A DNA stretch of 64,000 nt from a bacterium (GTDB taxonomy: Bacteria > Calditrichota > Calditrichia > RBG-13-44-9), in NCBI GenBank assembly GCA_020350205.1, contig CP070707.1, positions 3,163,563 through 3,227,562 of the forward strand, given 5' to 3'. Each line of letters opens with the position of its first letter. Position 1 is the stretch's first letter. The position numbers and the translations under genes were made by a program. Below the pieces are notes generated by a model, which saw only the letters and a program-made list of their open reading frames with translations, did not search any database and had not been told where the DNA came from. Shown here one piece after another: positions 38,200 through 51,934 of the stretch.

Positions 38200-39273
38200 A
38201 TGAATCAACCTCACATTTTGGTGATTAATCCCGGATCAACCTCTACCAAAGTTTCGCTTTTTGAAGGCGAGACAGAATTATTCACATATGCCATTGAACA
38301 CAAATTAGAAGACCTGGCCAGATTTAACAAAGCTTCCGATCAGGATCTGTATCGTATGGAATTTATTATAAGCCATCTGCAGAAAGAAAAAGTTGATGTG
38401 AAACAGATCAAAGCTATTGTAGGTAGAGGCGGACTGTTGAAACCCATAGAGGGAGGGACCTACCGGGTGAATCAGGAAATGGTGGCTGATCTGAGGCGGG
38501 GTGTTCAGGGGGATCATCCCAGTAATTGCGGTGGTTTGATAGCGTATACACTATCTAAGAGTCTGGATTGTGAAGCGTTTATTGTTGACCCGGTGGTGGT
38601 GGACGAACTGCAGGATCTGGCACGTTTATCCGGAATGCCACTTATCCGGCGCCGCAGTATCTTCCATGCATTGAATCAAAAAGCGGTTGCCAGGCAGGCT
38701 GCACACCGCCTGAAAAAGAAATACCATGAAGTCAATGTAATTGTCGCGCATCTGGGAGGTGGCATTACCGTGGGAGCACATCAGCAGGGGAGGGTAATTG
38801 ATGTGAATAATGGCCTGGATGGGGATGGTCCCTACTCTCCGGAACGTTCCGGAGGGGTACCGGTGGGAGACCTGGTAAAAGCCTGTTTCTCTGGAGAGTA
38901 TACAATGGCTGATATGAAGAAACTTGTCACCGGTCACGGCGGGGTGGTGGCTTATCTGGGAACCCGGGATATGAAACAAGTTGAAGAACAGGTGAAGGCG
39001 GGTGACAAGGATTATCGCCAGATTTATGAGGGATTGGCATATCAGGTAGCAAAAGAAATCGGTGCGTGTGCGTGCGTTTTAAAAGGTGTAGTCGATGCGA
39101 TTTGCATTACCGGGGGATTAGCCTTTTCAGATATTTTAAATGACTGGATTGAAGACCGTGTGAAATGGATTGCCCCGGTGATGGTTTATCCCGGTGAAGA
39201 GGAGATGAAAGCGTTAGCTCTGGGCGCATTGCGGGTATTGGAGGGAGAAGAACTGGCGAAAACTTATTCTTAA
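38200..39273 (+). CDS. buk: butyrate kinase
   Basis: ILVINPGSTSTKVSLFEG N-terminal ASKHA motif, and HLGGGITVGA and ITGGLA motifs typical of Buk/acetate-kinase fold enzymes. It is coupled to ptb. The ORF is open from 38179, and the ATG at 38200 removes the overlap. Confidence 0.9.
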   Translation: MNQPHILVINPGSTSTKVSLFEGETELFTYAIEHKLEDLARFNKASDQDLYRMEFIISHLQKEKVDVKQIKAIVGRGGLLKPIEGGTYRVNQEMVADLRRGVQGDHPSNCGGLIAYTLSKSLDCEAFIVDPVVVDELQDLARLSGMPLIRRRSIFHALNQKAVARQAAHRLKKKYHEVNVIVAHLGGGITVGAHQQGRVIDVNNGLDGDGPYSPERSGGVPVGDLVKACFSGEYTMADMKKLVTGHGGVVAYLGTRDMKQVEEQVKAGDKDYRQIYEGLAYQVAKEIGACACVLKGVVDAICITGGLAFSDILNDWIEDRVKWIAPVMVYPGEEEMKALALGALRVLEGEELAKTYS

Positions 39274-39301
39274 TTTGTTTAAACCCTTTAGAGGAAAAGG
39301 T

Positions 39302-39517
39302 ATGGAAGTAACCATCAAAGTACCGGATATGACCTGTGATCATTGTAAAATGACTATAGATAAAGCACTTAAAGGTGTTGCCGGAGTGACGGAAGTTCAG
39401 GTACTGCTTACGGAACATTGGGTTAAGGTATCCGGAAAGTCGGAAGTAAATCGAGTAATTCAGGCTATTCAATCCGCAGGATATACGGCCGAGGAAATTG
39501 TAAATTTAAAGCCGTAA
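39302..39517 (+). CDS. heavy-metal-associated (HMA) domain metallochaperone, CopZ-like
   Basis: MTCDHC (GMxCxxC-type metal-binding loop) in a ~70-aa ferredoxin-like layout; GAGGAAAAGG RBS before ATG 39302. Confidence 0.8.
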   Translation: MEVTIKVPDMTCDHCKMTIDKALKGVAGVTEVQVLLTEHWVKVSGKSEVNRVIQAIQSAGYTAEEIVNLKP

Positions 39518-39582
39518 TCAGGTATGATTAAGTTAGATCAGTTTTTTAATTATTCATGTGAAAAATATCTTTACAGGAGTTT

Positions 39583-40758
39583 ATGATGTATCCCCGTATG
39601 ATGAATGAAAATATTTTTGCAGTGGGTGCGTTTGATTGGGATCGAACCTTATTTGATGCCCTGATTCCGCTTCCTTACGGAACTACCTACAACGCTTATT
39701 TGATAAAGGGATCAAAAAAAACCGTTCTTATAGACACAGTTGACCCTTCGAAGCTTGCCGTTTTAAAAAGGAATCTTAATAATTTGAATATTGATAGACT
39801 TGATTATATCATTTCGAATCATGCAGAGCAGGATCACTCCGGTTCAATTCCCGAAATACTGAATCTTTATCCTATGGCCAGACTGTTAACCGGTAAAAAG
39901 GGACAGGATATGCTGTTACCACTGCTGGATATTTCGCCGGAGAGAATTCAGGTTGTGGAAGACCGGGAGATCTTATCGTTAGGTGATAAAACGCTTCAGT
40001 TTATTTTTGCACCCTGGGTTCACTGGCCGGAAACCATGTTTACTTTTGCGGTCGAAGACAAAATTCTATTCAGCTGTGATCTGTTTGGTGCCCATCTGGC
40101 CAGCAGTGAATTATTTGCCTCAAAAAATGAAAACACTTTACAGGAGGCTAAGCGCTACTATGCAGAAATCATGATGCCTTACGGAGGGCGGATTGTCAAA
40201 CATCTGGAAACACTGCAAAATTATGACATAAAAACTATTGCACCCAGTCATGGACCGGTCTATGATCACCCGGAACAGATCATGAGCGCGTATCACGAAT
40301 GGGTAACCGGAGATCTTAAAAATGAAGTCGTAATTATTTATGTCACCATGCATGGCAGTACGGAACAGTTGGTCTTCAGATTGACAGATGAGTTAGTGAA
40401 GAGAAATATTTCAGTTACCCCATTTAACACAGTGACTGCGAGCCTGGGAGATCTGGCGCTTTCGCTGGTGGATGCAAAGACGGTAATCCTTGGGTCACCA
40501 GCCTATCTCATGGGTGCCCACCCCAACCTTATTTACGCGGCCTACTTGATTAATACTTTAAAACCCCGGACTCAAAATGTTGGAATTATAGGATCCTTCG
40601 GATGGGGAAATAAAATGGTAAATCAGTTGACTGATATGCTGAAAGATCTCACAGTCGAATATTTACCCCCCTTGCTAGTCAAGGGGAATCCCCGGCAACA
40701 GGATTATCTCGATCTCGTTGCTTTGGCAGAAAAAATTCAGCAGGTGCATCAATCGTGA
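39583..40758 (+). CDS. flavodiiron protein (FprA/ROO type: metallo-beta-lactamase-like diiron domain + flavodoxin domain)
   Basis: Diiron ligand motif HAEQDH, further H/D ligands downstream, and a C-terminal flavodoxin-like domain (VIIYVTMHGSTEQL); 391 aa. Confidence 0.8.
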   Translation: MMYPRMMNENIFAVGAFDWDRTLFDALIPLPYGTTYNAYLIKGSKKTVLIDTVDPSKLAVLKRNLNNLNIDRLDYIISNHAEQDHSGSIPEILNLYPMARLLTGKKGQDMLLPLLDISPERIQVVEDREILSLGDKTLQFIFAPWVHWPETMFTFAVEDKILFSCDLFGAHLASSELFASKNENTLQEAKRYYAEIMMPYGGRIVKHLETLQNYDIKTIAPSHGPVYDHPEQIMSAYHEWVTGDLKNEVVIIYVTMHGSTEQLVFRLTDELVKRNISVTPFNTVTASLGDLALSLVDAKTVILGSPAYLMGAHPNLIYAAYLINTLKPRTQNVGIIGSFGWGNKMVNQLTDMLKDLTVEYLPPLLVKGNPRQQDYLDLVALAEKIQQVHQS

Positions 40759-40790
40759 TTGATAAAACCTTATTTGGAAAGGAGATAAAT

Positions 40791-42137
40791 ATGGCATCAA
40801 CAAAAATTGTCCTCTGTATAGTATTTTTCTTGGTGGCATATTCCCACTCTCAGGATCTTCCAGCAGGTGAAGAGGCTTTGGGTACTAAAAAGTATGAACA
40901 GTATGAAAGTCCGACTGTTTGTAAGAGCTGCCATGATAATTTCTATGAGCAATGGAAACAGGCTATGATGTCTCAGGCTTATACTCATCACTGGGATGAG
41001 ATTGAATACTTTAAATTGGCCGTTCCCCATGCAGAGAAGGATGAAAAGGTTGCCGGAGTTAAAGCGGGATGTAACGGTTGTCATGCTCCCATGGCTTTCA
41101 TGGCCGGTATAGTTCCCCCACCTAAACCAGAAGAAAATACGCGTGCGAATGAATCAGTTGCTTGTGATATCTGCCATACGATAATAGGATTTAAAGGAGA
41201 TATTCCTCATAATTTTAATTACATCTCGAATCCAGGAAGAACGAAATACGGTCCGAAACCAGGACTCTCCTCTCCACATCATGATACAGAGTATAACGAA
41301 TTTATTACTCAGTCAGAATTCTGTGGAACCTGTCATAATGAAATGAGTCCTTATGGGGTGTGGGTCAAAGCGACGCAGCTTGAATGGAAAGAGGGACCAT
41401 ATGCCAAAGAGGGAGTCCCCTGCCATCAATGTCATATGCCCAAGGCCAAAGGAAAGAATGCCAAAATGGCTAAGGAAGATATCGTTGCACAACATTTGTT
41501 CCATGGCGCCCATGACCCTGGGAAATTGGCCAGTGCTATTGAATTGAGAATGAATCCTCTGGAAAGAGAAGTCCCCTATGATGGAGTAGTATCTCTCAAT
41601 GTTCAACTTTTCAGTGCTAAACCGGGACACAAGTTCCCGACGGGCTCGGTTGAGGATCGAATTGTCTGGTTACATGTAACCGCAACTGATGCCGAAGGAA
41701 AAAGCTACCACCTGCCGGTGGACAAAAAAAGTTTTGCAGGTGAGGAATATACCATAGCGTCGGATGTATTGGCCTACCAGGATATGGGGATCGCATTGAA
41801 TGATCCCAATTTTCCCGGTGTGCAGCGGGATGGGGTGCCTATTGGGGACCGTATCTTCCGGATGCCTTATTTCGACCCGCAGGGCCGGATGACAATTCAA
41901 CAATGGAATACTAAATCTTTTGGAGTGGATTATCGGATCGGTCCCCGTGAGACGAAAATCGAAACTTTTACCTGGCAGTTACCTGATGATATAGCCCTTG
42001 GAAAAGTACATTTCACCGCAGAATTGAATTATAGCAAACTTGTTAAGCCAGTGGCTGACTTTTTAAAGGTTCCTGCAGAAGAAAGTGAAACGATATTAAT
42101 AAACAAGACAAATACCTGGGTTGAAGTATACGACTAA
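40791..42137 (+). CDS. periplasmic pentaheme c-type cytochrome with ~225-aa non-heme C-terminal domain
   Basis: AAGGAG RBS before ATG 40791. Signal peptide MASTKIVLCIVFFLVAYSHSQ. Five CxxCH motifs (CKSCH, CNGCH, CDICH, CGTCH, CHQCH) lie in the first ~235 residues; the remainder has no heme motif. There is no CxxCK, so it is not a canonical NrfA. Confidence 0.8.
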   Translation: MASTKIVLCIVFFLVAYSHSQDLPAGEEALGTKKYEQYESPTVCKSCHDNFYEQWKQAMMSQAYTHHWDEIEYFKLAVPHAEKDEKVAGVKAGCNGCHAPMAFMAGIVPPPKPEENTRANESVACDICHTIIGFKGDIPHNFNYISNPGRTKYGPKPGLSSPHHDTEYNEFITQSEFCGTCHNEMSPYGVWVKATQLEWKEGPYAKEGVPCHQCHMPKAKGKNAKMAKEDIVAQHLFHGAHDPGKLASAIELRMNPLEREVPYDGVVSLNVQLFSAKPGHKFPTGSVEDRIVWLHVTATDAEGKSYHLPVDKKSFAGEEYTIASDVLAYQDMGIALNDPNFPGVQRDGVPIGDRIFRMPYFDPQGRMTIQQWNTKSFGVDYRIGPRETKIETFTWQLPDDIALGKVHFTAELNYSKLVKPVADFLKVPAEESETILINKTNTWVEVYD

Positions 42138-42150
42138 AAGGAGAAATACC

Positions 42151-43377
42151 ATGCTCAAAAACTTTATTTATATTTTAATATTGATCGTTACTATTTTATT
42201 CATAGCATTGTTTCCGGAGGATGCAGAAGCCATCCCGGCTTTTGCCCGCAAATATAAAGTATCCTGTACTACCTGCCATGCTCCAATACCTAAACTAAAA
42301 CCCTATGGGGCAGAGTTTGCCGGCAACGGCTTTGTGATTCCCGAGGAAGAAAAAGAACGTGACTATATTACTGCAGGTGATAGTCTGCTCTGGCTTAACA
42401 GGAATTTTCCGATTGCCGTGAGATTTGATGCCTATGGGGTATATGATGATAAGGCACCCGTAGAAAACGATTTACAGCTTCCCTGGGGAGTGAAATTGCT
42501 TTCCGGCGGAAATTTGTATAAAAACATAGGGTATTATTTCTATTTTTACCTTTCAGAAAGGGGAGAGGTCGCCGGCATTGAGGATGCCTATATCCACTTT
42601 AATAATATATTTAATACCAATCTTGATGTGATGGTCGGTCAGTTTCAAACCTCCGACCCCCTGCTGAAAAGGGAATTACGTCTTACCTTTGAGGATTATA
42701 CCTTCTATACCAAACGGGTCGGTTTCTCGAAAATCAATCTAACCTACGATCGTGGTATCATGATGCCCTATACAATCGATAAAACCGGTACCGACCTGGT
42801 ATTCTTGGTGGTTAATGGTGCTGGAATCGGGGATGCCGGGGAGGATCGTAAATTTGATGATGATAAATTTAAAAATTATGGATTTAGAATCAACCAGGCT
42901 GTTGGTGAGTTTGCCAGTATCGGCGCTTTTATTTATTACGGAAGAGAGAGGGTTACAGATACTCTGGGTGTCAATGATAATGAAGTGACCTACATTGGCC
43001 CAGATGTCAATTTGACCGTAGGTAAATTCGAACTTACCGGACAGTACCTGTTACGTAAGGATACGAATCCATTGTTTATACCCAGTGCAGAGTCGAAGAA
43101 CACCTCCGCAATCATTGCTGAGATTATCTTTGCTCCTAAAAAAGAACGCTCCCGTTACTACTTCACATTCTTATATAACTGGGTAGATTCTGATCTCAAA
43201 GAAGAGGATTTTGCACCTCTCGCTCCTTATTTTGAATTCAATTCCCTGCAATATCATACCGCGACCTTGAACTGGACTTACGAGTTGGCGCGGAATCTAC
43301 GTTTTCTGGTGGAATTAACCCGGGATATTGAGCTGGAAGCGAACCGTGGGGTTCTGGGAATAGTCAGTGCGTTCTAG
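42151..43377 (+). CDS. outer-membrane beta-barrel protein with single N-terminal CxxCH heme motif (Cyc2-like fused cytochrome-porin candidate)
   Basis: AAAGGAG RBS immediately after the upstream stop, with ATG at 42151. Signal peptide MLKNFIYILILIVTILFIALF. The mature N-terminus is AFARKYKVSCTTCHAPIPKLKPYG, with one CTTCH. The ~360-aa rest shows an alternating amphipathic beta-strand pattern and ends ...LGIVSAF (terminal Phe). Confidence 0.6.
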   Translation: MLKNFIYILILIVTILFIALFPEDAEAIPAFARKYKVSCTTCHAPIPKLKPYGAEFAGNGFVIPEEEKERDYITAGDSLLWLNRNFPIAVRFDAYGVYDDKAPVENDLQLPWGVKLLSGGNLYKNIGYYFYFYLSERGEVAGIEDAYIHFNNIFNTNLDVMVGQFQTSDPLLKRELRLTFEDYTFYTKRVGFSKINLTYDRGIMMPYTIDKTGTDLVFLVVNGAGIGDAGEDRKFDDDKFKNYGFRINQAVGEFASIGAFIYYGRERVTDTLGVNDNEVTYIGPDVNLTVGKFELTGQYLLRKDTNPLFIPSAESKNTSAIIAEIIFAPKKERSRYYFTFLYNWVDSDLKEEDFAPLAPYFEFNSLQYHTATLNWTYELARNLRFLVELTRDIELEANRGVLGIVSAF

Positions 43378-43656
43378 TCGATAGCATGGATTATCAGAGA
43401 ATGGGTTAGGAGCTTTACGGAATCTGGAAGCAGTTGTGAACATTGAATATTTAAGATATAAATCTCTTAAGGTTGTATGATGTGAAGCCTCCGAATTAAT
43501 TCGGGGGCTTTCATTAGAGGAAAATCCCGGCCTGGCTCTAGAAAAATCCAATCCCCTCATATAAAGTGTAACCCAAATTCACCTTTAGCATCTTATATTA
43601 CATATATATCTACAAAAACACCCATACAGTAAGATTTCCGGAGGATAAGTTTTAAC

Positions 43657-44673
43657 ATGAAAAGATTTTTATTAATTCTTATATCTACTGCAATTACCTC
43701 GAATGCCTGGGCCCAGAACGATTCATTGCTATTTGACAACAATATTGTGATTGTAGGAGAAATAAAAAATCTGAATCGAGGGATTATTACCATTGAAACA
43801 GAGTTCAGTGACAGCGACTTCAAAATTGAATGGAATAAAGTAAAAGAAATTTATGGTACCCAGGAATATATTATTACGTTATCCGATGGAAATCGTTTAA
43901 AAGGTTCCATATCGACCGATCCCTCCGAAAAGTCAAAAGTAATAATTAGTGATGCTTATCAGACTTTGGCTGTTAGCTTGAATAACGTGGTTTTCATGAA
44001 ACCATTGGAAGAAGGATTCCTGCAAAAATTGAGTGCCTCAGTGGATCTGGGATTCAATTTAACCAAAGCCAATAATTTAAGACAGCTATCTCTGCGCAGT
44101 AAGGTTGGCTATTTGACCAACAGATGGAGTACCGATGGATTTCTGGATATTACGCGCAGTGACCAGGACAGTATTGCTGCCACCCGGAGAACGGATGCTT
44201 CGGTGGGATTTAACTACTTCCTGGGGAAACGATGGTTTGCTTTTATTTCATCAAAGTTTCTGCAAAGCGATGAGCAGAAACTGGAACTCAGGGCGACTCC
44301 GCTAATCGGTATCGGAAATTATTTCATCCAAACCAATTCAATGTATTGGGCACTTGTGGGGGGTATTGCCAGAACGATTGAGTTTTATACCGATCCGACT
44401 ATCGAAGACAGGAGCAGCAGCGAAGCAAATTTGGGAACCGAGTTAAACTTGTTCGATATGGGTGATTTAGGTTTGGTGACGACTTTGGCGGTCTATAGAA
44501 GTCTCAATGAAGGGGACCGAATTAGGGCTGACTTTAAGTTCGATATCAAATACGATCTTCCACTCGATTTTTATATCAGACTCGGCTATACTCATAATTT
44601 CGACAATCAACCGGTGGAAGGCGCTTCCCGAAACGACTGGGATTTATCGATGACTTTTGGGTGGGAACTGTGA
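43657..44673 (+). CDS. outer-membrane beta-barrel protein (DUF481/YdiY-like)
   Basis: Signal peptide ISTAITSNAWAQ, a ~100-aa N-terminal globular region and then alternating-polarity strands through to the C-terminus. Similarity to DUF481 is by pattern only. Confidence 0.4.
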   Translation: MKRFLLILISTAITSNAWAQNDSLLFDNNIVIVGEIKNLNRGIITIETEFSDSDFKIEWNKVKEIYGTQEYIITLSDGNRLKGSISTDPSEKSKVIISDAYQTLAVSLNNVVFMKPLEEGFLQKLSASVDLGFNLTKANNLRQLSLRSKVGYLTNRWSTDGFLDITRSDQDSIAATRRTDASVGFNYFLGKRWFAFISSKFLQSDEQKLELRATPLIGIGNYFIQTNSMYWALVGGIARTIEFYTDPTIEDRSSSEANLGTELNLFDMGDLGLVTTLAVYRSLNEGDRIRADFKFDIKYDLPLDFYIRLGYTHNFDNQPVEGASRNDWDLSMTFGWEL

Positions 44674-44906
44674 TTATCGGAAACCGTAAGATAACCTGAA
44701 ATCCTGTCTGTGACCGCCTGAGTTTCCAGCAATTGTAAACCACTATATGCTCATCTCTCCGAAACTGAAAGAGCAAGGCTCTCTGGTGTTTCGAAGTTTG
44801 AATTTATGATTTTTTGAATAGGGTTAACAAAAATAGTTGCTATATCCAATTAGGCTCAGTATTATATTTATCTATTATTATTCCTTACATATGATGGAGG
44901 TCCATT

Positions 44907-46265
44907 TTGAAAAAAATATTACTGTTCATTTTGATTTTCCTAATGACGGTTGAGCTTTCTCTTGCACAGGATAATCCTGAGGAACCGTCAGATCCTGTGG
45001 CACCCAAACGGATAGATTTAGCAATTGCTGAAGTGATGGCCAGTAATTTTGTAGCCTGGGCCGGTGCCCGTTATCTTCGGGAGGATAATTACTCTTTTTT
45101 GATCAGCTGGCAATCGGTTGAGGACAATCTCCGCCATGGTCTGGAGTGGGATCCCAATAATTTTGGCACAAATTTTCTTAACCACCCCTATCAGGGCAGT
45201 ACCTATTTTAATGCTGCCCGGACTAATGGTATGAGTTTCTGGGAATCAACCCCCTTTACTTTCGCAGGAAGTTACATGTGGGAAGTCTTTATGGAGCGCG
45301 AATATCCCGCCTACAATGACCTGGTTACCACCACCTGGGGAGGCGTGGCCCTGGGGGAGATATTGTTTCGATTTTCTGAAAATGTATTGGATGACCGCGC
45401 CCGGGGAGGTTCGCGGGTCTGGCGTGAGACGGCCGGCTTTTTGTTAAACCCAGTGGGTGGAGTTAATCGTATTATCAAAGGTGATATGTTCACGACCAGA
45501 TCTTCGGTTAATCATATTAGACGACCCTTCAATGGTTACATCGCGGTCGGTGGGCGTGGTAACCTGGAAGGATCGGATGCTGAAGATAGTAGATTAAGTC
45601 CCTCGTTTCAACTGACCGGTCATTATGGTAAGCCGTTCGAACCCAAATCAAAAATTAAGCCGTATGATTTCTTTGCCTTCCGTTTATGGACCAGTAAGCG
45701 AGATACCTTGAGAAGCACCGTGATTACTGCCTGGGGTACCCTGTTTGGTAAGCAATATGACAGGGAGAATGGGCAGAAACACCTGCTGAGTATTTCCCAG
45801 AATTATGACTATTATAATGCTCAGATTTTCACGATCGGGGCTATGGCTTTTACGACCAATCTATTGTCAAATTGGCCGCTGGGAAAAGGATTCCGCCTGA
45901 TTACGAATCCTGCACTGGGATTTATTGCATTGGGAGCGGGTAATAATGAATACGTAACCTCCTATCAGGGTCGAAATTATAATTTTGGCTGGGGGGCGCG
46001 TGGTAAATTTGAGTTCCTGGTTGAACATCAAAAGTTCGGCAGGATTCTGGGAGATTACAATTATTTCAGTCTCTATACCCGGGAAGGTGCACCGGGTGTA
46101 GACCGATTACATGTCTTTGATGTCAATTACATGATTAAGATATGGCGGCAACTGGGTATTGGAGTTGAGTATTTCTATTATTACCGAAATGCCCATTATA
46201 AAAATGATCCTGACGTCAGAAAGCACCTGAAAGGATTGAGAGGTCTCTTCTCTCTGGAATTTTAA
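44907..46265 (+). CDS. DUF3943-family secreted/outer-membrane protein
   Basis: Signal peptide, then W..DNLRHGLEWDPNNFGTNFLNHPYQGSTYFNAAR; the N..HPY.G..YF core is the DUF3943 signature seen in Bacteroidota-group proteins. The C-terminus is beta-rich and ends SLEF. Confidence 0.55.
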   Translation: MKKILLFILIFLMTVELSLAQDNPEEPSDPVAPKRIDLAIAEVMASNFVAWAGARYLREDNYSFLISWQSVEDNLRHGLEWDPNNFGTNFLNHPYQGSTYFNAARTNGMSFWESTPFTFAGSYMWEVFMEREYPAYNDLVTTTWGGVALGEILFRFSENVLDDRARGGSRVWRETAGFLLNPVGGVNRIIKGDMFTTRSSVNHIRRPFNGYIAVGGRGNLEGSDAEDSRLSPSFQLTGHYGKPFEPKSKIKPYDFFAFRLWTSKRDTLRSTVITAWGTLFGKQYDRENGQKHLLSISQNYDYYNAQIFTIGAMAFTTNLLSNWPLGKGFRLITNPALGFIALGAGNNEYVTSYQGRNYNFGWGARGKFEFLVEHQKFGRILGDYNYFSLYTREGAPGVDRLHVFDVNYMIKIWRQLGIGVEYFYYYRNAHYKNDPDVRKHLKGLRGLFSLEF

Positions 46266-46295
46266 AAGATTTATCAATCAAAAAAGAGGACTATC

Positions 46296-46931
46296 ATGAA
46301 AGCATATCTTTTTATTATAATCACTATCATTCTGATGATCTCTTCTCGGGCGATCTCACAACGGGTAGAAATTGCATTAATGACCGGTTATCAGATGGGA
46401 GGTATACTGGATGAGACCACGCAACAGGAGGGGATTTTCACCCCGGGTGACGCACTGGGTCTCACCGCTTCGGGTAATTTCGGAGTCATGCTTGATATCC
46501 GTTTGGCAAAGAAAGCGTTCCTGGAACTTTCAATAGACCGCCAGCCGACCAACCTGAATTATCATGAAGCTCCGGATGGAGAAATTTCCCGCTCTATGAA
46601 AATTAATGTAGATTATTACCAGGCAGGTATTATCTATGACTGGTCCTCCAGCTATCTTCGACCTTTTTTTGGATTGGCGATTGGTCTGGTACATTTGGCA
46701 CCGGATGAAAATCTGGATAGCGAGACACGACTAAACTTCTCCCCTTTAATGGTCGGCGTCAAAACCTATGCCAGTAAATATTTCGCTTTTCGGTTACATG
46801 CCCGTCTGCTGATCAGCGATGCTCCTGAAAAAATCTATTTTAAGGATACGGACGGAGAAGGTTTCTATCATGAAAAAAGTACCTTTATGACCCAGATACA
46901 GTTTGGGGTGGGCATGGTGCTGTCACTTTAG
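46296..46931 (+). CDS. small outer-membrane beta-barrel protein (OmpA-like barrel/porin-family fold)
   Basis: 211 aa with a signal peptide and eight or more amphipathic beta strands of alternating hydrophobicity. Confidence 0.45.
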   Translation: MKAYLFIIITIILMISSRAISQRVEIALMTGYQMGGILDETTQQEGIFTPGDALGLTASGNFGVMLDIRLAKKAFLELSIDRQPTNLNYHEAPDGEISRSMKINVDYYQAGIIYDWSSSYLRPFFGLAIGLVHLAPDENLDSETRLNFSPLMVGVKTYASKYFAFRLHARLLISDAPEKIYFKDTDGEGFYHEKSTFMTQIQFGVGMVLSL

Positions 46932-51478: not shown

Positions 51479-51934
51479 ATGTTAAAAGTAGGTGATAAAG
51501 CACCCGATTTTAAAGTACTCTCGGATCAGGGGAAAGAGGTAACTTTATCTCAGTTCCTTGGAAAAAAAGATGTGATCCTTTATTTTTATCCCAAAGATAA
51601 TACCAGCGGCTGTACCAAGGAAGCTTGTTCCTTTCGGGATAATATGCCCCGGTTTGACACCAAAAAGGCCGTGGTCTTGGGAGTAAGTCCCGATAGTGTT
51701 AAATCTCATCAGGGTTTTATCCAGAAGCAAAATCTCAATTTCAATCTGTTAAGCGATCCCGAACATAAAGTGGCGGAAGCCTATGGTGCCTGGGGTGAAA
51801 AAAGTATGTATGGGAAAAAATACATGGGTATTTTACGCTCTACTTTTATTATCGGCAAAGACGGAACCATTAAAAAAGTCTATGAAAAGGTAAAACCGGA
51901 GGGGCATGCCGAGGAAGTTTTACAGGCGCTGTAA
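51479..51934 (+). CDS. bcp: thiol peroxidase Bcp (peroxiredoxin Q type)
   Basis: LYFYPKDNTSGCTKEACSFRDN with peroxidatic and resolving Cys in GCT...C arrangement; 151 aa; AAGGAGG RBS. Confidence 0.85.
   Translation: MLKVGDKAPDFKVLSDQGKEVTLSQFLGKKDVILYFYPKDNTSGCTKEACSFRDNMPRFDTKKAVVLGVSPDSVKSHQGFIQKQNLNFNLLSDPEHKVAEAYGAWGEKSMYGKKYMGILRSTFIIGKDGTIKKVYEKVKPEGHAEEVLQAL

Follow-up and report, generated by a model that had tools for sequence, protein, structure and literature searches.

A conserved two-gene cassette pairs a pentaheme cytochrome of the Thermochromatium tepidum c552 fold with a Cyc2-type cytochrome-porin

Two kinds of described systems bear on the locus analyzed here, a pentaheme c-type cytochrome gene and the cytochrome-porin gene directly downstream of it, found in a 64,000-nucleotide stretch of a Calditrichota genome (contig CP070707.1 of assembly GCA_020350205.1; the whole stretch is hereafter called the window). 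The first is a family of two-domain pentaheme proteins whose structural reference is T. tepidum cytochrome c552 (PDB 5ZE8). This structure is reportedly that of Chen et al. 2019, and the fold is said to have been solved in 2018 with no function assigned. PMC11976967 describes 5ZE8 as a penta-heme cytochrome of low potential and suggests a role in sulfur metabolism. The family has been named PHC and includes Geobacter ExtKL, Gsu2801, and cytochromes of cable bacteria (PMC11976967). ExtKL of Geobacter sulfurreducens, renamed MccSep, has been characterized by crystallography and enzymology as a polysulfide reductase (bioRxiv 10.1101/2025.11.18.688581). MccSep comprises a helical five-heme cap and an immunoglobulin-like (Ig-like) stem; Cys239 ligates heme 2, and the selenocysteine (Sec) at position 325 of the Ig-like domain is needed (bioRxiv 10.1101/2025.11.18.688581). 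A pairing of a pentaheme cytochrome with a porin has also been published for PtdA and PtdB, which are encoded by ptdABCDEFG in marine Alphaproteobacteria and other bacteria and were proposed by the authors to form a porin-cytochrome complex of unassigned function (bioRxiv 10.1101/2023.11.21.568154).

The second system is Cyc2, defined by Keffer et al. 2021 (PMC8406198) as a protein of 365 or more amino acids with a 16-strand porin, in which the motif AXPXFAR[Q/K][T/Y] precedes the only CXXCH and PXL follows four residues behind it. Every Cyc2 tested biochemically oxidizes Fe(II), and Cyc2 of PV-1 has a potential of 208 mV (PMC8406198). In the canonical pathways (Cyc2-rusticyanin-Cyc1 of Acidithiobacillus and Cyc2-Cyc1 of Zetaproteobacteria and Gallionellaceae), a periplasmic c-type cytochrome is the presumed electron acceptor. 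Through FeGenie, cyc2 has become a widely used marker for microbial Fe(II) oxidation, and it recurs in heterotrophic lineages that are not known to oxidize iron (Aminicenantes, Krumholzibacteria, KSB1, and Ignavibacteria). FeGenie surveys have called the gene in Aminicenantes, Krumholzibacteria, KSB1, and Ignavibacteriaceae, and Fe(III)-reducing taxa have also been noted to contain homologs of Cyc2 (PMC6344600). Thus, the PHC fold and family, the pairing of a pentaheme protein with a porin in the Ptd system, and the presence of cyc2 in several of the phyla considered below are already known.

The pentaheme protein of the window belongs to the PHC / T. tepidum cytochrome c552 (5ZE8) fold family. 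When PDB sequences were searched with phmmer, 5ZE8 was the sole significant match (E = 9e-7). The match extends over three collinear stretches, and GHKFPTG of the window protein aligns to HAMPTG of 5ZE8. A profile of the family matches 5ZE8 at E = 1.8e-11, collinear across both domains. The AlphaFold model, for which 49 homologs were used (pLDDT 79.8, pTM 0.76), contains a beta-rich domain from about residue 250 to residue 448 that includes many 10-residue blocks with pLDDT above 90 and carries neither a heme motif nor a cysteine. Foldseek matches the model to 5ZE8 over its full length (E = 3.6e-18, TM 0.60/0.68); the other Foldseek matches cover the Ig-like domain only, with a TM of ~0.2 relative to the query. 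In both proteins, an Ig-like domain with an equivalent H-x-x-PTG motif comes after five CxxCH motifs, whose order is the same. They differ in length (435 amino acids deposited for T. tepidum c552 versus 448), share 21-26% identity, and diverge at position 60, where the T. tepidum protein has His and the clade of the window protein has Met.

The initial annotation had termed the protein unclassified, a description that is superseded by its placement in a fold family with a crystal structure. Other parts of that annotation agree with our results. The search for remote homologs with Foldseek on a predicted structure, which it had proposed, yielded the full-length match to 5ZE8. The C-terminal region is a confidently modeled, beta-rich, non-heme domain and not a disordered or low-complexity tail. 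Its designation as a functional module is reasonable, since it carries H280 and the same domain provides the catalytic Sec in MccSep. We also agree that the protein does not resemble MtrA or OmcA. Clustering with NrfH/NapC or with c554, which the annotation had named as the outcome that would change its view, was not seen; the closest family is that of 5ZE8, whose structure is solved.

Profile searches place the protein at some distance from named families. A HMMER search of 1.84 billion representatives returned 2105 relatives at E <= 1e-3, of which 113 reach E <= 1e-30. The best NCBIfam match is ExtKL (NF040886), at 48 bits against a cut-off of 250 (E = 6.6e-13) and confined to residues 123-315. 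Pfam model PF13435 (c554 / c-prime) scores 33.9 bits against a gathering score of 20.8 over residues 43-130, which span hemes 1-3. This is a generic multiheme model, and c554 proper was rejected. Cytochrome c554 is a tetraheme protein without an Ig-like domain, and no c554 structure appeared among the fold-search matches. The Pfam MtrC/MtrF domain gives a local match below threshold (28.8 versus 30 bits), and the MtrA/DmsE decahemes were ruled out as an identity.

The gene directly downstream encodes a Cyc2-type fused monoheme cytochrome-porin. The 408-residue product begins with a signal peptide and agrees with the published Cyc2 definition in its N-terminal motif, single CXXCH, PXL, length, and 16 strands. 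P29, F31, R33, C39, C42, H43, P47, and L49 are invariant among 50 homologs of the partner. Its model contains 16 beta strands over residues 88-407, and Foldseek relates it to general porins, also of 16 strands (E = 1e-10, TM up to 0.69). The pentaheme stop codon and the Cyc2-like ATG are separated by a 13-nucleotide spacer, which implies that the two genes are co-transcribed. They are the only open reading frames (ORFs) in the window that contain CxxCH motifs.

The pairing was followed in a genome scan that included one genome per species. At least 567 species genomes contain a relative of the pentaheme protein, and synteny was taken from the best 80 of these, all of them metagenome-assembled genomes (MAGs) or single-cell amplified genomes. 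The best 80 are labeled Calditrichota, Latescibacterota, KSB1, Krumholzibacteriota, Fibrobacteraceae, Gemmatimonadetes, Neomarinimicrobiota, Fidelibacterota, Aminicenantes/Acidobacteria, Ignavibacteria, Zixibacteria, and Eisenbacteria. Several other MAG labels (Clostridia, Eubacteriales, Deltaproteobacteria, and Cytophagia) look doubtful. A Cyc2 homolog (38-75% identical) lies directly downstream on the same strand at all 81 loci with sequence at this position; two further genome loci end 2 bp past the pentaheme gene and are therefore not among the 81. Additional close homologs are followed by Cyc2 at two of three loci, which brings the overall count to 83 of 84 informative loci. Exactly one CxxCH is present in 74 of 75 partner ORFs, the remaining one being masked by N, and deviations from the core motif of the partner are minor variants (FARTH, FGRKY) or ORF-calling artefacts. 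The two proteins have also diverged together, as indicated by the correlation between their pairwise-identity matrices (r = 0.70, Mantel p ~0.001); mean identity is 65% for the pentaheme protein and 50% for its Cyc2 partner. Clustering of flanking ORFs found any other family in at most 7 of the 84 neighborhoods. The cassette is self-contained and placed in unrelated genomic contexts.

Comparison with more distant homologs shows where the pairing begins. The nearest outgroup, P0244, is 43% identical to the window protein. At the metagenome loci that include this outgroup, Cyc2 follows homologs that are 56% and 63% identical and follows none that is 41% identical or less. Pairing with Cyc2 therefore defines one orthologous group of pentaheme proteins. 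Co-occurrence of the gene with the barrel gene across genomes, for which the initial annotation had proposed to look, is observed. Its proposal that the product is the redox partner of the downstream cytochrome-porin is backed by the synteny and the co-divergence. Within the best 80 genomes (L004-L083), the pentaheme protein is 65-81% identical over roughly a dozen phyla. Identity of this degree is unusual among orthologs from different phyla and suggests strong constraint, lateral transfer of the cassette, or both. A search of plasmids recovered only superfamily members with 22-23% identity and none of the Cyc2-linked clade, so lateral spread gains no support from plasmid carriage. In an Oleimicrobiaceae MAG (L002:10701-13781, L003:2746-5880), the pair is directly followed by a gene for a ~1030-residue ResB/CcsA fusion of the system II cytochrome c maturation type.

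The cassette resembles each of the described systems in part. Like the predicted window protein, ExtKL/MccSep is periplasmic and combines a helical cap holding five hemes with an Ig-like stem that bears an extended hairpin; its gene adjoins the outer-membrane porin-like gene extI (PMC11976967), whereas the partner in the window is a heme-bearing Cyc2. The window protein lacks the heme-2 Cys ligand C239, a residue strictly conserved in the MccSep/ExtKL family, as well as the Sec/Cys residue U325 and the in-frame UGA of MccSep. PtdA and PtdB provide the published precedent for a pentaheme-porin pair, although PtdA can be likened to the window protein by description only. PtdB is described simply as a porin, whereas a heme and the Cyc2 motif are present in the porin of the cassette. 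Counterparts of ptdC-G (a flavoprotein, a tetraheme cytochrome, a 4Fe-4S protein, a ferric-reductase-like membrane protein, and a decaheme cytochrome) are not conserved at our loci, where two genes make up the module in 84 neighborhoods. The canonical Cyc2 pathways use the same type of fused monoheme cytochrome-porin. There, either a cupredoxin or a Cyc1 with one or two hemes is the periplasmic partner, whereas the cassette encodes a PHC protein of two domains and five hemes in an obligate operon with cyc2. In addition, the hosts of the cassette are FCB-group and allied heterotrophs that, unlike the hosts of the canonical pathways, are not known lithotrophic iron oxidizers. MtrAB, PioAB, and Pcc systems likewise place the gene for a periplasmic multiheme cytochrome beside that of an outer-membrane beta-barrel and move electrons across the outer membrane. 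In those systems, deca- or other high-heme cytochromes are threaded through large heme-free barrels; judging from the model, the ~16-strand barrel of the cassette, which has its own heme, would be too narrow for a 45-kDa protein.

Table 1. Positions of the cassette, its sequence features, and the genes directly upstream, numbered from the first nucleotide of the window
Feature	Position	Strand	Remarks
HMA-domain (CopZ-like) metallochaperone gene	39275-39517	+	upstream of flavodiiron gene
Flavodiiron protein (O2/NO reductase type)	39583..40758	+	ends 32 nt before pentaheme ATG
Shine-Dalgarno site AAGGAG, pentaheme gene	40779..40784	+	6 nt 5' of ATG 40791
Pentaheme c-type cytochrome gene	40791..42137	+	448 aa; PHC / T. 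tepidum c552-like fold; stop TAA 42135-42137
Predicted Sec signal peptide, ~residues 1-21, MASTKIVLCIVFFLVAYSHSQ	40791..40853	+	judged by eye from sequence
Heme-binding motif 1 CKSCH, residues 44-48	40920..40934	+	in 63/65 aligned orthologs; other two N-terminally truncated
Clade-specific Met/His segment M59-M60...H66-H67...H80	40965..41030	+	M60 in place of family His, 12 residues after heme-1 His
Heme-binding motif 2 CNGCH, residues 94-98	41070..41084	+	CNGCH in 65/65 orthologs
Heme-binding motif 3 CDICH, residues 125-129	41163..41177	+	sequence and ortholog alignment
Heme-binding motif 4 CGTCH, residues 178-182	41322..41336	+	sequence and ortholog alignment
Heme-binding motif 5 CHQCH, residues 211-215	41421..41435	+	followed by candidate distal ligands H235, H241; NrfA similarity local to motif
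C-terminal Ig-like beta-sandwich domain, ~residues 250-448	41538..42134	+	
GHKFPTGS motif, residues 279-286	41625..41648	+	H280 is the family's most conserved non-CxxCH residue
Shine-Dalgarno site AAGGAG, Cyc2-like gene	42138..42143	+	immediately after pentaheme stop codon
Cyc2-type fused monoheme cytochrome-porin, 408 aa	42151..43377	+	Cyc2 definition, 16 strands, synteny, co-divergence
Cyc2 diagnostic segment AIPAFARKY-KVS-CTTCH-API-PKL, partner residues 27-49	42229..42297	+	

The ORF of the pentaheme protein was confirmed at 40755..42137 on the forward strand. In agreement with the initial annotation, its start was assigned to the ATG at 40791 instead of the GTG at 40755 because of the Shine-Dalgarno site that precedes the ATG (Table 1). 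Homologs, including those in NCBI, are likewise 448 amino acids long, and the identical deposited protein is JSW33_13490. The putative signal peptide has a lysine-containing n-region, a 12-residue hydrophobic core, and a small-residue site (S-H-S) but no lipobox; residues 2-18 are helical in the model. As initially annotated, five CxxCH motifs lie in the N-terminal part of the protein, where ~0.002 would be expected by chance in a protein of this size (our own estimate). They are intact in 65 aligned orthologs, except that two N-terminally truncated sequences have lost motif 1, and they are 94-100% conserved in 61 distant relatives. The mature protein has no cysteine outside these motifs, no CxxCK, and no read-through stop. 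A scan of positions 38900-44000 for promoters and terminators gave site counts not above those of shuffled sequence.

Conserved residues outside the heme motifs were identified in two alignments, one of the family (the window protein and 61 full-length representatives; 62 sequences) and one of 65 orthologs. Family-wide constants are H280 (98%), P283 (98%), G285 (95%), and R290 (94-98%), together with H235 (85%), M216, E198, W199, and R382. H280 lies in GHKFPTGS. This segment and WLHVTATD had both been picked out earlier as conserved-looking, and the second is indeed conserved within the ortholog group, with W293 and L294 invariant. Column 60 contains His in 50 of the 62 family sequences, including 5ZE8, to whose His (SMHAKS) it aligns gap-free; Met is found in 8 sequences, those of the window protein and its closest relatives among them. 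His and Met likewise alternate in column 235. Because these residues are the canonical axial ligands of c-type hemes, columns 60 and 235 probably contribute distal ligands. M60, H66, H80, H164, H235, H241, and H280 are invariant in the orthologs, such that the candidate distal-ligand columns 60, 164, 235, 241, and 280 are all occupied and invariant. H66, H67, and H80 are missing from most of the PHC family.

The ligand assignments of M60, H164, H235, H241, and H280 derive solely from these conservation patterns. M60 would serve as the axial ligand of one His/Met heme with a potential higher than that of a bis-His heme, and its presence would shift the potential of this heme towards the 208 mV of Cyc2 PV-1 (PMC8406198). 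H280 may reach across from the C-terminal domain to ligate a heme. Since every candidate distal position is filled, an electron-transfer protein is a simpler reading than an enzyme with an open heme. Some orthologs contain an additional cysteine: six have it at position 278, directly before G279-H280 (L016, L018, L020, L029, L032, and L041), and ~10 others have a single one at alignment position 393. These occurrences are sporadic and not conserved.

Genes for defense against oxygen and reactive oxygen species (ROS) are enriched beside the cassette. The Cyc2-linked clade was queried for superoxide reductase, flavodiiron protein, peroxiredoxin/Bcp, thioredoxin, rubrerythrin, and related genes. 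Their density is 13 per 100 kb within 0-500 bp of the module, falls to 1.4 at 0.5-2 kb and 0.4 at 2-4 kb, and reaches 0 past 4 kb, where 145 kb were examined; the bins farther out serve as the sole control for this density. All 10 adjacent stress genes (seven for superoxide reductase, one for a flavodiiron protein, and two for peroxiredoxin) are upstream, and the nine examined are on the same strand at a distance of 47-318 bp. The superoxide reductase genes encode desulfoferrodoxin and lie 48-171 bp upstream of the pair, on the same strand, in seven species genomes of different lineages (L035:1862-2236, L007, L019, L022, L025, L042, and L050). In the window itself, the gene upstream of the pair encodes a flavodiiron protein with ODP metallo-beta-lactamase and flavodoxin domains; it scores 218 bits with NF008887, which is under the equivalog cut-off. 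This gene is probably in one transcription unit with the pentaheme gene. Given the short interval between the two, the HMA-domain, flavodiiron, pentaheme, and Cyc2-type genes may all form a single unit. The closest relative (L004) also has a flavodiiron gene directly upstream, 47 nucleotides away. Neighboring PHC clades with 26-43% identity adjoin other genes of this type: catalase with a Fur/PerR-like regulator and hemerythrin, Ni-SOD with rubrerythrin, and secreted MsrA-MsrB. Loci of this kind in distant PHC clades are L098:2606-3784, L099:2360-4987, L124:5261-6538, and L129:2044-3132, the last encoding an MsrA-MsrB fusion with a signal peptide.

Together, these findings suggest a model, to which we give about an even chance, in which the pentaheme protein serves Cyc2 as a dedicated redox partner in the periplasm and relays Fe(II)-derived electrons inward, probably during oxygen exposure. 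The protein would be a soluble cytochrome secreted by the Sec pathway, with an N-terminal helical cap that holds a five-heme chain and an Ig-like domain that supplies H280 to the heme domain. Cyc2 and this protein would make up a conduit, encoded by two genes and complete in itself, that carries electrons across the outer membrane. Fe(II) would be oxidized by Cyc2 at or in the outer-membrane pore, and electrons would pass from the single Cyc2 heme to the pentaheme protein docked at the periplasmic face. The five hemes would then buffer the electrons and relay them to oxidant-reducing systems of the periplasm or inner membrane. We favor inward flow because all tested Cyc2 proteins oxidize Fe(II) and because this clade has exchanged a conserved axial His for Met. 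The likely setting would be oxygen exposure of largely anaerobic or micro-aerophilic heterotrophs and not obligate lithotrophy, either as micro-oxic Fe(II) oxidation or as protection against Fe(II)/ROS chemistry.

Several observations weigh against this model. The Met60 signature also occurs in the P0244 clade, whose members lack a Cyc2 neighbor, and is therefore not specific to coupling with Cyc2. One close homolog (L088:3935-5209; 70% identical over residues 46-446) has no Cyc2 downstream, which could reflect gene loss, rearrangement, or a chimeric metagenome contig. Stress genes flank only ~12% of loci, and their enrichment is subject to ascertainment bias because the queries were picked after such genes had been seen at these loci. 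Filled distal positions are also compatible with catalysis: bacterial di-heme peroxidases open a coordination site on reduction, so that hemes that are six-coordinate at rest still allow turnover. Low-potential bis-His hemes, moreover, would be poor acceptors for electrons derived from Fe(II). Finally, the characterized relatives are the enzyme MccSep and the c552 described in PMC11976967 as a low-potential cytochrome; neither is a demonstrated relay.

The link to oxygen defense can also be read in another way. The pentaheme protein could be the terminal reductase of a self-contained detoxification system, reducing H2O2, O2, or NO in the periplasm with electrons that Cyc2 draws from extracellular Fe(II). 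The pair would then constitute a complete Fe(II):oxidant oxidoreductase, independent of the inner membrane, for envelope-level defense against oxygen or peroxide in anaerobes and micro-aerophiles of many phyla; by stripping electrons from incoming Fe2+, Cyc2 would also pre-empt Fenton chemistry. We regard this as possible but unlikely. It would account for a strictly two-gene module with no conserved third partner, for the O2/ROS-defense genes directly upstream, and for the catalase, Fur/PerR-like regulator, hemerythrin, Ni-SOD, rubrerythrin, and secreted MsrAB beside neighboring clades. The PHC family, in addition, has an NrfA-like core heme arrangement, and NrfA-type enzymes also turn over H2O2 and NO. 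The conserved residues R290, R382, and Y414 of the Ig-like domain, which are basic or polar, could line a substrate channel like that of MccSep. However, no open heme site is evident, as the candidate distal positions are all filled and invariant; neither Pfam nor NCBIfam reveals similarity to known peroxidases; and ~88% of loci have no stress gene beside the pair. Electrons might alternatively travel outward, from the quinol pool or periplasmic carriers by way of the pentaheme protein and the Cyc2 heme, and reach soluble extracellular acceptors (Fe(III) chelates or humics, for example), which would make the pair a minimal porin-cytochrome conduit for anaerobic respiration. Such a role is suggested by the hosts, mostly anaerobic or facultative heterotrophs that include Ignavibacteria, cited as known iron reducers, and by the occurrence of Cyc2 homologs in Fe(III)-reducing taxa (PMC6344600). 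The PHC relatives ExtKL and PtdA are likewise found in porin-cytochrome-like clusters proposed for extracellular electron transfer, and the solved relative is called a low-potential cytochrome in PMC11976967. We nevertheless find outward flow doubtful, since the biochemically tested Cyc2 proteins are all Fe(II) oxidases, the change from His to Met at position 60 would point to a higher and not a lower potential, and an association with oxygen defense is hard to reconcile with metal respiration that is strictly anaerobic. A lone heme within a barrel of 16 strands presumably handles dissolved Fe2+ and not minerals, which also counts against it.

Two further readings assign the protein to an enzyme family. 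As a polysulfide or selenite reductase of the MccSep/ExtKL type, it would use the barrel as a substrate channel. Although ExtKL is the best NCBIfam match, the five-heme cap and Ig-like stem are common to both proteins, and extI is a porin-like neighbor, we judge this very improbable. The score falls far below the cut-off (48 versus 250 bits), the gene ends in TAA with no in-frame UGA, and the absence of any Cys outside the CxxCH motifs leaves no counterpart of C239 or of U325/Cys, both of which are essential for MccSep activity (bioRxiv 10.1101/2025.11.18.688581). The additional cysteines of some orthologs at positions 278 and 393 are only sporadic, and columns 235 and 241 are invariant His. 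An NrfA-like nitrite reductase or a membrane quinol dehydrogenase of the NapC/NirT type is scarcely credible. Close homologs bear the NCBI/JGI names "NapC/NirT family cytochrome c" and "nitrate/TMAO reductase-like tetraheme subunit", and weak local matches occur at hemes 4-5 (PF03264, 23.8 bits; NrfA structures in the PDB, E ~0.04-0.5). Nonetheless, there is no CxxCK and the NrfA models score only ~15 bits (NF008339, 15.4 versus 595; TIGR03152, 15 versus 692), in keeping with the initial annotation, which had set the protein apart from NrfA. PF03264 itself remains below threshold (23.8 versus 24.1 bits) and covers residues 171-235 only, and TIGR03153 gives 18 versus 134 bits. NapC/NirT/NrfH proteins are tetraheme, ~200 residues long, and membrane-anchored, whereas the window protein has five hemes, 448 residues, and a signal peptide that appears cleavable. 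The 200-residue Ig-like domain and the sole full-length structural match, 5ZE8, point elsewhere, and the database names on close homologs are wrong.

In the Cyc2 and PHC literature that we searched, which largely excluded subscription journals, we found no description of an obligate PHC-Cyc2 cassette, of its breadth, or of a link to oxygen defense. Relatives are present in at least several hundred species genomes, and in roughly a dozen phyla cyc2 forms a fixed two-gene cassette with a PHC-fold pentaheme cytochrome, as counted by synteny at 83 of 84 loci. This pattern cautions against reading every cyc2 match as lithotrophic iron oxidation. A dedicated periplasmic acceptor in an oxygen-stress context provides a testable two-protein hypothesis for cyc2 in organisms that do not oxidize iron, and the PHC fold gains a second functional context besides sulfur reduction by MccSep. 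If the pair were indeed an Fe(II):oxidant oxidoreductase, Cyc2 would acquire a non-lithotrophic role and this branch of the PHC family its first function; a PHC protein with an outer-membrane barrel would then be a general two-component design covering ExtKL-ExtI, PtdA-PtdB, and the pair described next.

In a neighboring PHC clade with 33-35% identity, a gene for a ~255-300-residue protein with a signal peptide lies upstream of the cytochrome gene on the same strand at 23 loci (L105:3209-3979, L086, L089, L090, L093, L094, L099-L104, L109, L110, L112-L117, L125, L126, and L149). The distance is mostly 107-170 bp and reaches 437 bp in a few cases. This upstream protein has no Pfam match, and its C terminus is a typical outer-membrane beta-signal (...SILSIGFF or ...SILSYVIKF); the protein is probably a small outer-membrane barrel that lacks heme and is paired with the cytochrome. 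Along with the published ExtKL-ExtI and PtdA-PtdB, it suggests that the combination of a PHC protein and an outer-membrane barrel is a recurrent design.

Other neighbors vary among loci. Downstream of the pair in the window, positions 43657-46931 code for a DUF481 protein, a DUF3943 protein, and a small outer-membrane beta-barrel; all three are predicted to belong to the envelope and are not recurrent companions of the cassette at other loci. A Bcp-type peroxiredoxin is encoded at 51479-51934, ~8 kb downstream. At L088, a fatty-acid desaturase gene is located ~350 bp downstream of the pentaheme gene. A plasmid of Nitratiruptor sp. YY08-14 (L165:649-7381) carries a remote PHC-like multiheme cytochrome (22% identity) in an iron-handling cluster that consists of an OprD-family porin, ferritin, imelysin, a hypothetical protein, the cytochrome, and an FTR1-family iron permease, which hints that distant members of the family also act on periplasmic iron redox. 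Another remote PHC-like member is found on plasmids of Leptospira interrogans.

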